Shown: piece by piece, positions 56,050-58,748 of the stretch
How positions within the stretch are numbered: the first letter of the stretch is position 1
Layout: every line of letters begins with the position of its first letter
Origin: Escherichia phage Eryne
Length of the DNA: 64,000 nucleotides
Reading direction: 5' to 3' (one strand)
Sequence record: PQ529420
Notes under the pieces: generated by a model
What the model was told of the DNA's origin: nothing
Databases searched by the model: none
What the model saw: only the letters and a program-made list of their open reading frames with translations
Made by a program: the position numbers and the translations under genes

Positions 56050-56943
56050 ATGAAAGTTAGTATTCTACATGGTGTTGACTGTTATATTACTGATGTAGAC
56101 GTTAAAGTCTTTACATTCTCTGGTGGAGAACAACATGTTCAACTAGACACGAATCTATCAGGTTTCAATCATGCTACAGACAGAATCTTACTCTCTTTAG
56201 AAGTAAGATCTGCTAAAGACTTGATGACTTTGGTTATGACTAAGAATGCATTGGACAATATGCTATATCATAAACCATATTGTGTTGATTTGCTCATGTT
56301 GTATGTGCCATATGCACGACAAGACAGAGTATGTGAACCTGGGGAAGCATTCGGAGTTAAAGCATTTGCTTCTATAATTAATTCATTAAATTTCTCACGT
56401 GTTATCGTTGCTGATCCACATAGTGATGTTACTCCAGCAGTGTTTGACAGACTCTGTGTAATACCTCAAGAAGAGATTGCTTACGAAACTTTAAAGTGGA
56501 AGTTACGTATGGAGAATTTTGCTCTTGTTAGTCCTGATGGTGGTGCTCTTAAGAAAATATTTAAATTATCTAAGAAAATGTCTTTAGATGTGTTCTGTGC
56601 AGAGAAGGTTAGAGATACTGCAACAGGTGCTATTGTTCGTACAGACATTTCTGTACAGGATTTCAATAAGCGTAACCTGATGATCGTAGATGATATCTGT
56701 GACGGCGGTAGAACTTTTATTGAATTGGCTAAAGTGCTACGTGCTCGTAACGCAGGTAAGATTGAGTTATATGTTACACACGGTATCTTTTCTAAAGGTC
56801 TTAAAGAGTTAAGTGAGCACTTTGACTGCATTCATTCTCTTAATGTGTGGGAAGATAACATCCAAGAAGATTCCGGTGTTCTTGTTAAGAATCAGTCAGA
56901 TTTGCAACAACAAATTGTATCTCCATACGTGTGGAATTTTTAA
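56050..56943 (+). CDS. prs: ribose-phosphate pyrophosphokinase (PRPP synthetase)
   Basis: LMLYVPYARQDR and PRPP-binding MIVDDICDGGRT motifs; RBS TAAGGAGA. Confidence 0.8.
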   Translation: MKVSILHGVDCYITDVDVKVFTFSGGEQHVQLDTNLSGFNHATDRILLSLEVRSAKDLMTLVMTKNALDNMLYHKPYCVDLLMLYVPYARQDRVCEPGEAFGVKAFASIINSLNFSRVIVADPHSDVTPAVFDRLCVIPQEEIAYETLKWKLRMENFALVSPDGGALKKIFKLSKKMSLDVFCAEKVRDTATGAIVRTDISVQDFNKRNLMIVDDICDGGRTFIELAKVLRARNAGKIELYVTHGIFSKGLKELSEHFDCIHSLNVWEDNIQEDSGVLVKNQSDLQQQIVSPYVWNF

Positions 56944-56953
56944 ATAATAAGTG

Positions 56954-56988
56954 TTGACAATAGGGAGTATGCTTAGTAAGATACTCCC
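56954..56988 (+). promoter_or_regulatory. sigma70-like promoter with overlapping inverted repeat
   Basis: -35 TTGACA, 17-nt spacer, -10 TAAGAT; inverted repeat GGGAGTAT / ATACTCCC spans the -10 region. Confidence 0.45.
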
Positions 56989-57014
56989 ACACTAACAAAC
57001 AAGGAGACATAACT

Positions 57015-58748
57015 ATGAATATTTTTGCACCTTTTGCTACTGATTGGTATAAACCTGGTCACAAGCAGATGTACAACCAAAATACAAAACTCATTTTCTC
57101 TAATTTAACTCCTCGTAATGATAAAAACTTTGCACACTATGCAGATCGTGAAGCACGTGGTGTAATTGTTTTAGGTATTCGTCGAGCAGTTACTGATGCT
57201 CTTGTAACTATGTGGGATAGCTTCTTTAAAATGTCTCGTAGTGCAGCAGTAAATAAATTTTATCGTATGTCTAAAAATGCATTAGGTGCTTCTGCTCCTT
57301 CTGCTGAATGTTGGGGAGAATTGCACGATTTAGGTTATCTTCCGCTGGAAGTTCGATCTCTGCCAGAAGGTGTTTTGTGTCCTATTGGTGTTCCTGTGTT
57401 TACTGTGCATAATACTTTAGAAAAATTCTTTTGGTTAACTAACTATGTGGAAACACTATTGTCAGATGAAACTTGGAAGACAATGACTAATGCCACAGCA
57501 GCTTTCCAGTATAAGCGTATCGCTATGGCATATGCGATGGCAACGTGTGATAATATTGATCACGTTAACTTCCAGTGTCATGATTTTAGCCTACGTGGTT
57601 TAAGTAATATCGAAGATGGTTATAAGAGTGGTATCGCTCATTTGGCATCTTTCACAGGAACAGATAACATTCTGGCTATTGAAACTGTGCATGATTATTA
57701 TGGTATTGATTATGATCAGTTTGTTGCAGGTTCTATTCCGGCAACAGAACATTCAGTAGCAACGACTAACATTGGAGCTATTGTTGAAGATCTGAAGAAA
57801 CATTTCCCACATCTTAAAGATGATGTTGATGGGTTTCGTTATGTAGCAGAGAAAGAGTTTCTTCGCCGCTATATTGAAGAAATTGTTCCAGAAGGTTTTT
57901 GTTCATATGTAGCAGATTCTTATGACTACTGGGCTGTCTTGACTCGCATTCTGGTAGAGTTGAAAGATTCCATTATGTCACGAAATGGTCGTCTTGTTAT
58001 TCGTCCAGATTCAGGAGATCCGGTTAAAGTTGTTGCAGGATACAATGTTGAATCTTTTGATAACTATGAAGACCTTTTAAATAATGGTATTGCTACAGCC
58101 ACTGAAGTAGTTCATTTGGCTGATGTTAATAAGTATTACAATGTTCTTCAGGATTGCAGTGTTGCTGATTGTATTGATGAAACTTATGAGATTCCTTATT
58201 GTGAAGCAGTAGGTTCTATTCAAATCCTTTGGGAAGTGTTTGGTGGTACTATCAACCGAAAAGGCTACAAGGTTCTTGATCAGCACATCGGTATGATTTA
58301 TGGTGATTCTATTACTGTTGAACGAGAACACGAGATCTTACGCCGACTGAAGAAGAAAGGTTTTGCAGCTTCCAATATTGTATTTGGTGTTGGTAGTTAT
58401 ACTTATCAGTTCAATACACGAGATACTTTTGGTTTTGCTGTTAAAGCAACAGGTAGTATCATCGGTGAACACGAAATTTTGGTAAGTAAGGAGCCTAAAA
58501 CTGATCCTGGTAAACGCTCTGCAAAAGGTTTTATTAAGGTTGTTAAGGATACAAATGGTAAACTTTCTCTTGTGGATAATCTTTCTTTTAAAGATATCCA
58601 AGATGAAGACAATGAGTTACAAGTTATCTTCAGAGATGGTACGGTTATTACACCACAAGTAGAAGGACGTGATGAAACATTTACTGATATCCGCAACCGT
58701 GTTGATGTAGAGGTTCTTCGTACTATGGGAACCATCCAGGTTGACTAA
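57015..58748 (+). CDS. nadV: nicotinamide phosphoribosyltransferase (NAMPT/NadV)
   Basis: N-terminal TDWYKPGH (NAMPT TDSYK-type motif), 577-aa length typical of NadV; RBS AAGGAGA. Confidence 0.8.
   Translation: MNIFAPFATDWYKPGHKQMYNQNTKLIFSNLTPRNDKNFAHYADREARGVIVLGIRRAVTDALVTMWDSFFKMSRSAAVNKFYRMSKNALGASAPSAECWGELHDLGYLPLEVRSLPEGVLCPIGVPVFTVHNTLEKFFWLTNYVETLLSDETWKTMTNATAAFQYKRIAMAYAMATCDNIDHVNFQCHDFSLRGLSNIEDGYKSGIAHLASFTGTDNILAIETVHDYYGIDYDQFVAGSIPATEHSVATTNIGAIVEDLKKHFPHLKDDVDGFRYVAEKEFLRRYIEEIVPEGFCSYVADSYDYWAVLTRILVELKDSIMSRNGRLVIRPDSGDPVKVVAGYNVESFDNYEDLLNNGIATATEVVHLADVNKYYNVLQDCSVADCIDETYEIPYCEAVGSIQILWEVFGGTINRKGYKVLDQHIGMIYGDSITVEREHEILRRLKKKGFAASNIVFGVGSYTYQFNTRDTFGFAVKATGSIIGEHEILVSKEPKTDPGKRSAKGFIKVVKDTNGKLSLVDNLSFKDIQDEDNELQVIFRDGTVITPQVEGRDETFTDIRNRVDVEVLRTMGTIQVD

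Follow-up and report, generated by a model that had tools for sequence, protein, structure and literature searches.

NAD+ reconstitution pathway 1 (NARP1) is already known from the work of Osterman et al. (2024), who showed that phage operons of the type "Prs plus Nampt, no NMN adenylyltransferase (NMNAT)" encode it, and whom the puzzle of the missing NMNAT led to direct NAD+ synthesis via ADP-ribose pyrophosphate (ADPR-PP) (bioRxiv 10.1101/2024.02.11.579819). The chemistry and the anti-defence effect have been demonstrated in the literature for the homologues of Bas63, SPbetaL1, Fado and ICP1, and the P. foliorum homologue is also among those for which enzymatic activity and/or defence rescue has been demonstrated. 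Moreover, ADPR-PP synthesis by ICP1 Adps and the structures of this enzyme have been published (PMC13586617). In this pathway, NAD+ that a host defence (such as SIR2-HerA, DSR1/2, type I Thoeris or SEFIR) has split into ADP-ribose and nicotinamide is restored in two reactions: with ATP, Adps adds pyrophosphate to the free ribose of ADP-ribose, which yields ADPR-PP, and Namat then exchanges the pyrophosphate of ADPR-PP for nicotinamide to form NAD+ directly. Since this route has no NMN intermediate, an NMN adenylyltransferase is unnecessary.

In this study, two genes were analysed in a 64-kb stretch of DNA (the window) from a phi92-like E. coli myophage, a Justusliebigvirus. At this locus, phi92, alia and PaulScherrer/Bas60 share 99% identity with the window, and the complete genome of PaulScherrer (98-99% identical) was used for whole-genome checks. 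The original prediction had described two ORFs, promoter-like sites and an 8-bp inverted repeat, and all of them were found in the sequence where it had placed them. The two ORFs are as follows:

56050-56943, + strand: adps, predicted ADP-ribose pyrophosphate (ADPR-PP) synthetase; PRPP-synthetase-like, 297 aa; orthologue of phi92 gp107
57015-58748, + strand: namat, predicted nicotinamide ADP-ribose transferase; Nampt-like, 577 aa; orthologue of phi92 gp108

The gene pair very probably represents the NARP1 module of a phi92-like coliphage, as judged from the sequences of its products. Both genes lie on the + strand with adps upstream and a spacer of 71 nt between them, and the NARP1 rule asks for the two genes within 10 genes of each other on the same strand. 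The supplementary tables of Osterman et al. include the phi92 proteins FR775895_00103 and FR775895_00104 as well as the PaulScherrer proteins MZ501100_00239 and MZ501100_00240; in these tables, the Adps orthologues are labelled "Namat within 10 genes = Yes" and the Namat orthologues "Adps-associated" (bioRxiv 10.1101/2024.02.11.579819), so the phi92 and PaulScherrer pairs count as NARP1 by the criterion of those authors. In nearly all of the 61 GenBank records that match, the old Prs and Nampt-type names persist, and such labels on these phage genomes should read Adps and Namat (NARP1).

A 73-aa Cys4 ORF downstream of namat (58820-59041) was considered as a third operon member and rejected. 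This ORF is kept in Klebsiella phage KP2025 (75% identity); its homologue was absent from the NARP1 loci of Vequintavirinae, Felixounavirus, Thalassavirus and SPbeta, and it is thus not part of the pathway. A "hypothetical tRNA" within phi92 gp108 had no ARAGORN support, and the sole match of an Rfam scan of 55400-59600, GA-cis, was sub-threshold (21 bits, cutoff 34.7) and was taken as chance. Genes of nucleotide metabolism are plentiful in the window, including those for ribonucleotide reductase, thymidylate synthase, thymidine kinase and glutaredoxin.

Signature residues of the two proteins

By sequence comparison, the PRPS-fold protein encoded at 56050-56943 is closer to verified Adps enzymes than to canonical Prs. 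It differs at two residues from the phi92 protein in Supplementary Table 1 of Osterman et al., and its identity to ICP1 Adps (sequence taken from the phage record) is 41%, falling to 32% for Bas63 Adps, 31% for SPbetaL1 Adps and 24% for E. coli Prs. The tblastn comparison with ICP1 Adps gave an E value of 2e-41 at about 40% identity, and the E. coli PRPS structure in the PDB was matched with an E value of 7e-15. Models of ribose-phosphate diphosphokinase matched the protein weakly: the broad TIGR01251 was passed with 118.7 bits (cutoff 113), and the score fell short of every NCBIfam Prs equivalog cutoff by 200-480 bits (PRK01259, 99.7 bits, cutoff 297; PRK00934, 98 bits, cutoff 296). Two elements of its predicted active site were located by alignment:

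56605-56607, + strand: codon of Adps Lys186, aligned with the catalytic lysines of ICP1 Adps (Lys185) and SPbetaL1 Adps (Lys162)
56689-56718, + strand: Adps PP loop (ATP-donor loop), residues 214-223, DDICDGGRTF

Activity is abolished by K185A in ICP1 Adps (PMC13586617) and by K162A in SPbetaL1 Adps (bioRxiv 2024.02.11.579819). The aligned K186 sits in EKVRDTATGAIV, which fits the beta-hairpin lysine context K-x-R-[DN]-x-x-T-G-x-I. The PP loop, which Adps homologues have in conserved form and whose role in Adps has been described (PMC13586617), is exactly that of Bas63 Adps and close to that of ICP1 (DDICDGAASF), and E. coli Prs reads DDMIDTGGTL at this place. Furthermore, F23, R90, H124, D163, K186 and D214-D215 are conserved in the alignment. 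The adenine contact Phe92 of ICP1 Adps corresponds to Cys95, and neither Bas63 nor SPbetaL1 retains the Phe. The C-terminal 45 residues have no alignment to the C-terminus of E. coli Prs, and the alpha11-alpha12 regulatory/filament module of PRPS may have been lost.

The Nampt-fold protein encoded at 57015-58748 is, by the same kind of comparison, closer to Namat than to Nampt, and its catalytic core is intact, with D10, Y12, F191, R194, D217, H246, R330 and D332 conserved. Its best matches among solved structures were 9W5X and 9W5W (SPbetaL1 Namat; E value 5e-118), and mammalian NAMPT followed at about 3e-48. Among family models it matched PF04095 (E value 6e-38) and NF006629 (461 bits, cutoff 405). 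SPbetaL1 Namat and FelixO1 Namat were each 44% identical to it, compared with 33% for the Nampt of phage VH7D, which is of the NARP2 type. Two features bear on its relation to the characterized enzymes:

58392-58424, + strand: motif of the Namat selectivity-clamp helix, GSYTYQFNTRD, residues 460-470, which fits the consensus
58041-58211, + strand: Namat insertion of about 57 aa, residues ~343-399, relative to SPbetaL1 Namat, placed by the split of the HMMER alignment

The published clamp consensus of Namat is GSX-phi-X-phi-X-phi-TRD (PMC12774641); the adenine-stacking positions in the motif correspond to Tyr462 and Phe466, and the NARP2-type Nampt has GGGLLQQLDRD at this position. The selectivity-clamp loop (SCL) reads K37-N38-F39 and is six residues longer than that of SPbetaL1. 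In this variable loop, the stacking residue is described as an Arg at the third position or, when a Lys or Tyr stands there, as the residue after it (PMC12774641); the protein has K37 at the third position followed by Asn, and Bas63 has the described aromatic residue there (K-W). A second, shorter insertion was found at residues ~254-280 in the HMMER alignment to 9W5X, and Namat of the FelixO1/Bas63 type carries a longer insertion at the same site as that of 58041-58211 (MAFFT).

NMNAT searches and the reading as NARP1

The original prediction had also reported that the window contains no NMNAT, and this was borne out: when the 89 ORFs of 80 aa or longer in the window were scanned with Pfam, neither PF01467 nor PF00293 was matched, and regular expressions for the NMNAT motif G-x-F-x-P-x-H-x-G-H and the Nudix box found nothing in six frames of the window and of the whole PaulScherrer genome. 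The search for NMNAT and Nudix domains that it had called for was likewise empty among the window ORFs and the 37 non-structural ORFs of PaulScherrer. In VH7D, the 409-aa ORF beside the Nampt gene showed no obvious NMNAT motif by eye. An apparent lack of NMNAT is expected in NARP1 genomes and constitutes no gap.

These data bear on the possibility that a genuine Prs and a genuine Nampt make NMN, which the host or an unrecognised phage NMNAT would convert to NAD+, the host route running through NadR, or through PncC and then NadD and NadE. Pfam, NCBIfam and most GenBank records do name the proteins as Prs and Nampt types. However, the Prs-like protein is barely above TIGR01251 and below all equivalog cutoffs, the two proteins cluster with verified Adps and Namat instead of Prs and Nampt, and the adenine-clamp motif that separates Namat from Nampt is present. 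Moreover, SPbetaL1 Namat supplied with PRPP and ADPR-PP together yielded only NAD+, no NMNAT was found in the window ORFs or the PaulScherrer genome, and this explanation has already been refuted for homologues, all of which makes it very improbable for the present pair. An even fainter prospect is that the Prs-like protein raises PRPP for nucleotide supply and the NadV-like protein serves an unrelated NAD salvage with no specific link to defence. The richness of the window in nucleotide-metabolism genes would agree with such a role, but the identical gene pair recurs across unrelated phage families and the window proteins bear the Adps and Namat signatures.

The identity and order of the genes were observed directly, as were the signature residues of their products and the lack of an NMNAT, and we infer that the pair has the same activity as the tested NARP1 homologues. 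The idea of a phage module that restores NAD and belongs to the kind countering NAD-depleting defences is upheld. The proposed chemistry from ribose-5-phosphate through PRPP to NMN, in contrast, is contradicted by Adps and Namat signatures in place of those of Prs and Nampt, and the NMNAT partner held to be needed for NAD regeneration would have no place in NARP1, which forms NAD+ directly via ADPR-PP. Namat enzymes keep some PRPP-dependent NMN synthesis in vitro (PMC12774641), and the window pair may have a minor NMN route beside NARP1. On the NARP1 reading, phi92-like phages, therapy candidates whose host range is very broad, should withstand NAD-depleting defences built on SIR2, TIR or SEFIR. 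Current understanding of the pathway is unchanged by the locus.

A probable spacer hairpin and a distant macro-domain gene

The following candidate signals precede the two genes:

55982-56010, + strand: sigma-70-like promoter candidate of adps, TTGACT-17-TAGAGT, 9/12 of consensus
56037-56042, + strand: Shine-Dalgarno sequence of adps, AAGGAG, read directly from the sequence
56954-56982, + strand: promoter candidate of namat, TTGACA-17-TAAGAT, 10/12 of consensus
56963-56988, + strand: inverted repeat/hairpin GGGAGTAT-N10-ATACTCCC, arms at 56963-56970 and 56981-56988

As a class, sigma-70-like matches were not enriched in the region (19, compared with 14.4 +/- 4.1 in shuffles); the TTGAC-N17-19-TAAGAT set to which the namat site belongs had five copies in the window against 0.16 expected. 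The right arm of the inverted repeat overlaps the -10 hexamer of the namat promoter candidate, and 12 nt separate the end of the repeat from the namat Shine-Dalgarno sequence (AAGGAG, 57001-57006). Inverted repeats of 8 bp are not rare, with 10 pairs of at least 8 nt in 3.6 kb. The predicted hairpin (-13.1 kcal/mol) ranks within the top 0.5% of all + strand 32-nt windows in the 64-kb stretch, and the sole stronger hairpin within 55600-59600 lies inside a tRNA gene.

A stem of other sequence occupies the equivalent position in KP2025, pEp_SNUABM_01, VIK251 and CR8. The arms compared (GGAGAGGAT/ATCTTCTCC, GGGGAGA/TCTCCCC, GGGCG/CGCCC and GGGGCA/TGCCCC) are wholly different in sequence between relatives, yet they still pair and hold the same place with respect to the ribosome-binding site; across the five lineages the stems vary in length, which permits no column-by-column alignment. 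The inverted repeat probably does form a hairpin. Since the relatives retain a stem of differing sequence, a nucleic-acid hairpin fits better than a shared protein-binding sequence, and it most likely acts at the level of the transcript or of DNA structure, as part of a composite of promoter and stem-loop.

The repeat had been proposed as an operator, and control of namat transcription by a dimeric repressor bound there would agree with the overlap with the -10 hexamer and with the several small putative DNA-binding proteins/transcription factors annotated in the early region of a related genome. The overlap with the namat promoter candidate stands, but arms that differ between relatives while pairing and position persist do not look like a shared operator sequence. 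In addition, promoter-like hexamers read by eye precede the stem in pEp_SNUABM_01 and CR8, where it would belong to the 5' leader, and the other four TTGAC-N17-19-TAAGAT promoters of the window lack the repeat. An operator is therefore unlikely. The hairpin recalls the PeSLs of T4-like phages (PMC2839356, PMC4122927), which likewise join a short intergenic sigma-70-type promoter to a GC-rich stem-loop; those occur in another phage group with another sequence, whereas the window stem overlaps the -10 hexamer, and the likeness is one of analogy only.

NARP1-AP of Vibrio phage Gary (Osterman et al. 2026, bioRxiv 10.64898/2026.01.28.702374) consists of Adps, the macro-domain phosphatase Adpp and Namat, and shares the Adps and Namat core with the window. 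The genes flanking adps and namat in the window encode no macro domain, and tblastn of Gary Adpp against the window returned zero matches. In PaulScherrer, the macro-domain protein bas60_0070 is 41% identical (E value 2e-32) to the verified Gary Adpp and has an additional N-terminal region of about 90 aa; its gene lies about 83 kb from the operon, clustered with those of a ComF-like PRTase and a HAD hydrolase. We tentatively raise the possibility, to which we give rather less than even credence, that Justusliebigviruses have a split NARP1, in which a distant Adpp-like phosphatase acts in trans and the hairpin sets the Adps:Namat ratio. If true, the split NARP1 would also defeat aRES-type defences, which produce ADPR-1''-phosphate, and surveys confined to two genes around the operon would overlook it.

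Comparison with known systems

Canonical E. coli Prs (b1207) and Nampt/NadV have the same folds as the window proteins, and many active-site residues are common to both, among them the equivalents of Prs F35, R96, H131, D170 and D220-D221. Prs differs from the window Adps in its overall sequence (24% identity), in its loop (DDMIDTGGTL) and in a C-terminus that cannot be aligned; furthermore, the acceptor substrate is ribose-5-phosphate in canonical Prs and ADP-ribose in the homologues of the window Adps. NARP2 of Vibrio phage KVP40, which consists of the Nampt NadV and the bifunctional Nmnat NatV, employs a homologous enzyme of the Nampt fold, counters the same defences by restoring NAD+, and is the pathway that the original prediction envisaged, but it requires PRPP and an NMNAT and works without Adps. 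The KVP40-like Nampt of VH7D is 33% identical to the window Namat and is without the clamp motif. A genome-encoded Nmnat/NatV, by which NARP2 is recognised, was not found in the window or the PaulScherrer genome, and in the survey of Osterman et al. no phage carried NARP1 and NARP2 together (bioRxiv 10.1101/2024.02.11.579819).

The NARP1 loci of Bas63/JohannRWettstein (genes 79-80), SPbetaL1 (genes 190-191), Fado and ICP1 (bioRxiv 10.1101/2024.02.11.579819, PMC12774641, PMC13586617) contain the same families as the window in the same order and on the same strand. The tested systems and the window have in common the catalytic lysine and PP loop of Adps, the catalytic core and GSX-phi-X-phi-X-phi-TRD motif of Namat, and the lack of an NMNAT in either. 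Identity to the tested enzymes is only 31-41% for the window Adps and 42-44% for the window Namat. The arrangement of the genes differs in that the 71-nt spacer of the window holds a promoter-like site and a hairpin, whereas adps and namat overlap in SPbetaL1, and an HNH endonuclease gene lies between them in FelixO1. Finally, compared with the crystallised SPbetaL1 enzyme, the window Namat has a longer SCL and two extra insertions.

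Family assignment of the adps-namat pair

The two ORFs that the original prediction had placed at 56050-58748 and read as a PRPP synthetase and a nicotinamide phosphoribosyltransferase were both found, as follows:

56050-56943, plus strand: adps, 297 aa, phosphoribosyl-pyrophosphate synthetase family (Pfam/NCBIfam)
57015-58748, plus strand: namat, 577 aa, NAPRTase/Nampt family (Pfam/NCBIfam)

The adps product barely passed the broad TIGR01251 model (118.7 bits; cutoff 113) and fell hundreds of bits short of every NCBIfam equivalog model. It shared 41% identity with the Adps of ICP1, an enzyme characterised in activity and structure in 2026 (PMC13586617), 31-32% with the Adps of Bas63 and SPbetaL1, and 24% with E. 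coli Prs. Moreover, the catalytic lysine (ICP1 K185, SPbetaL1 K162) was retained as K186 within the Adps-type hairpin K-V-R-D-x-x-T-G-x-I, and the donor loop (DDICDGGRTF) was the same as in Bas63 Adps, whereas that of E. coli Prs is DDMIDTGGTL.

Among solved structures, the namat product matched 9W5X and 9W5W best (E 5e-118; mammalian NAMPT, approximately 3e-48), both of which are SPbetaL1 Namat according to the depositors' paper. All NAM-binding and ribose-phosphate-binding residues were kept, and residues 460-470 (GSYTYQFNTRD) matched the consensus GSX-phi-X-phi-X-phi-TRD of the Namat-specific clamp, the aromatics of which stack on adenine (PMC12774641). In contrast, the NARP2-type Nampt of the KVP40-like phage VH7D, an enzyme of the route that pairs Nampt with an NMN adenylyltransferase (NMNAT), carries GGGLLQQLDRD at this position and is only 33% identical to the window Namat. 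Two features fit less closely. The variable clamp loop is K37-N38-F39 in the window and K-W in Bas63. Compared with the crystallised SPbetaL1 enzyme, the window Namat carries two insertions (approximately residues 254-280 and 343-399), and the FelixO1/Bas63-type Namat, which is functional in vivo, has a still longer insertion at the second site. The Namat homologue of Citrobacter phage Tr1 (L011:2990-5647, in the Tr1 locus) is annotated with 885 aa, approximately 300 aa more than that of the window, a difference that points to an intein or some other sizeable insertion.

Osterman et al. had faced this question too, in a phage operon labelled Prs plus Nampt that would be expected to yield NMN. 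[quoted passage not shown] They named this route NARP1 and detected it in 859 phage genomes. The Prs-like proteins of phi92 and PaulScherrer are entered in their Supplementary Table 1 with 'Namat within 10 genes = Yes', and the matching Nampt-like proteins in Supplementary Table 2 as 'Adps-associated' (bioRxiv 10.1101/2024.02.11.579819). The window Adps differs from the phi92 entry at two residues. By sequence, the adps-namat locus is a catalogued, predicted member of NARP1.

The absence of an NMNAT from the window, noted in the original prediction, was confirmed. A Pfam scan of the 89 window ORFs of at least 80 aa was read as three lists, two of which held the best 25 of 31 families (the remaining families having E values weaker than 0.0025), and neither CTP_transf_like (PF01467) nor NUDIX (PF00293) was among the matches listed. 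The PF00483 nucleotidyltransferase match belongs to the dTDP-rhamnose pathway. Beyond the window, in the near-identical complete PaulScherrer genome, no NMNAT or Nudix domain was detected by Pfam in the 37 non-structural ORFs lying outside the window's counterpart. Furthermore, regular expressions for the NMNAT motif G-x-F-x-P-x-H-x-G-H and the Nudix box gave zero matches in six frames of the window and of the whole PaulScherrer genome.

By analogy with the homologues, a host NADase would split NAD+ into ADP-ribose and nicotinamide, Adps would move the beta-gamma pyrophosphate of ATP onto the 1'' hydroxyl of ADP-ribose, and nicotinamide would replace the pyrophosphate via Namat to give NAD+ again. 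NARP1 consumes the products of the defence system itself and yields NAD+ directly with no requirement for an NMNAT; therefore, the question of a missing partner is settled, and the gap proposed earlier was not borne out. The idea of a NAD-restoring anti-defence module was right, but its proposed chemistry (PRPP to NMN) was wrong in view of the Adps and Namat signatures and the NARP1 literature.

Genomic setting and other NAD-related genes

In a nucleotide search, the region 55700-59100 aligned end to end, at 98.6-99.4% identity, with the best-matching records of Justusliebigvirus, the phi92-like E. coli myophages (including phi92, alia and PaulScherrer/Bas60), and 55 records reached at least 80% query coverage. 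The phi92 counterparts of adps and namat are gp107 and gp108. The pair opens a rightward transcription unit and is followed by a 15-gene tRNA cluster; upstream lies a long leftward block with genes for nucleotide metabolism, recombination and RNA repair. Four 'Campylobacter phage' records (MG065645, MG065656 and two others; host C. jejuni) are approximately 99% identical to this group, and their host label or sample is probably wrong. A 151-nt 'hypothetical tRNA' annotated within the Namat coding sequence of phi92 (FR775895 49736-49886; window ~57607-57757) appears spurious, as ARAGORN found no tRNA there.

Directly 3' of namat lies an ORF (58820-59041, plus strand) for a 73-aa product with two CxxC pairs, preceded by a separate TTGACT-17-TAAGAT site. 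Its counterpart in Klebsiella phage KP2025 shares 75% identity and is recorded there as a TFIIB-type zinc finger; no homologue was present at the NARP1 loci of other phage groups. Elsewhere, 545 bp are missing at ~35070-35081 relative to PaulScherrer, which merges rmlB (dTDP-glucose 4,6-dehydratase) and rmlA (glucose-1-phosphate thymidylyltransferase) into one 436-aa ORF (34690-36000, minus strand); the phage may thus lack an intact dTDP-rhamnose pathway. In an otherwise densely coding genome, approximately 1.1 kb (6490-7649) is free of ORFs of at least 40 aa and contains strong hairpins at 6939-6970, 7026-7057 and 7191-7222. Between the small early genes (window ~327-5537, plus strand), a GC-rich hairpin (GGCGGGAAATGGTTTCCCGCC and variants) recurs in at least five near-identical copies, for example:

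327-347, plus strand
2635-2658, plus strand
3003-3025, plus strand
4649-4669, plus strand
5506-5528, plus strand

The stem at 3225-3245, GGCGGGGGAGTATTCCCCGCC, is more divergent. These copies resemble PeSL-like cassettes, repeated stem-loops of promoter or terminator type.

A sirtuin-family protein (21088-21900, minus strand; PF02146, E 1.3e-22), a NAD-consuming enzyme, shares the genome with this NAD-rebuilding pathway. Outside the window's counterpart, PaulScherrer encodes a NADAR/YbiA protein, a DUF4326 protein and the following cluster member:

PaulScherrer MZ501100 59888-60622 (L006:14891-15622, minus strand): macro-domain protein bas60_0070, beside a ComF-like PRTase and a HAD hydrolase

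Over its C-terminal 150 aa, bas60_0070 shares 41% identity (E 2e-32) with Adpp, the experimentally verified ADPR-1''-phosphate phosphatase by which Vibrio phage Gary extends NARP1 against the aRES defence (bioRxiv 10.64898/2026.01.28.702374). The gene lies ~83 kb from the NARP1 pair. The survey of aRES and NARP1-AP (NARP1 with Adpp) covered at most two genes from NARP1 operons and does not list phi92-like phages (bioRxiv 10.64898/2026.01.28.702374), which accounts for the absence of bas60_0070. Given this distance and survey range, a split NARP1-AP with an Adpp-like gene remote from the core pair is possible in phi92-like phages. Macro domains also serve other roles, such as DarG-type antitoxins.

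Promoter-like sites and the stem upstream of namat

A consensus scan found promoter-like hexamers upstream of both genes, in agreement with the promoters predicted for the pair. Those before namat belong to a TTGAC-N17-19-TAAGAT set with five members in the window against 0.16 expected:

1589
35807, minus strand
56954
58741
59162

Several of these sites have short palindromes within or around the spacer. The predicted inverted repeat, GGGAGTAT/ATACTCCC (56963-56970 and 56981-56988), was present over the namat promoter candidate, its right arm overlapping the -10 hexamer, and was absent from the other four sites. Its hairpin (-13.1 kcal/mol) falls among the strongest 0.5% when every 32-nt segment of the window's plus strand is folded, and the only stronger hairpin locally lies within a tRNA gene.

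In Klebsiella phage KP2025, whose flanking genes are 73% identical, the same position reads TTGACT-ttgt-GGAGAGGAT-gaatta-ATCTTCTCC; the stem is kept and its sequence is different. In three other genera, a G-rich stem precedes namat, 11-15 nt ahead of the Shine-Dalgarno sequence (promoter-like hexamers read by eye):

pEp_SNUABM_01: GGGGAGA/TCTCCCC, just downstream of the -10
VIK251: GGGCG/CGCCC, overlapping the -10
CR8: GGGGCA/TGCCCC, just downstream of the -10

Stems of differing sequence were found in at least five related lineages (the window; L010:2955-2990; L012, L013 and L014), and in each case the stem stands 11-21 nt upstream of the ribosome-binding site. No such stem was found upstream of namat in FelixO1 and SPbetaL1, and a small ORF occupies its place in Citrobacter phage Tr1. 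The original prediction had considered the repeat a possible operator; however, a shared operator sequence seems unlikely, because the stems diverged among relatives with the pairing conserved. Since pairing was kept while sequence diverged, these comparisons point to a structural element; an operator read by a co-evolving regulator is a less likely alternative. The structural element could form in read-through adps mRNA, as a 5'-leader stem, or as a composite of promoter and stem-loop, for which the PeSLs of T4-like phages offer a possible parallel (PMC2839356, PMC4122927).
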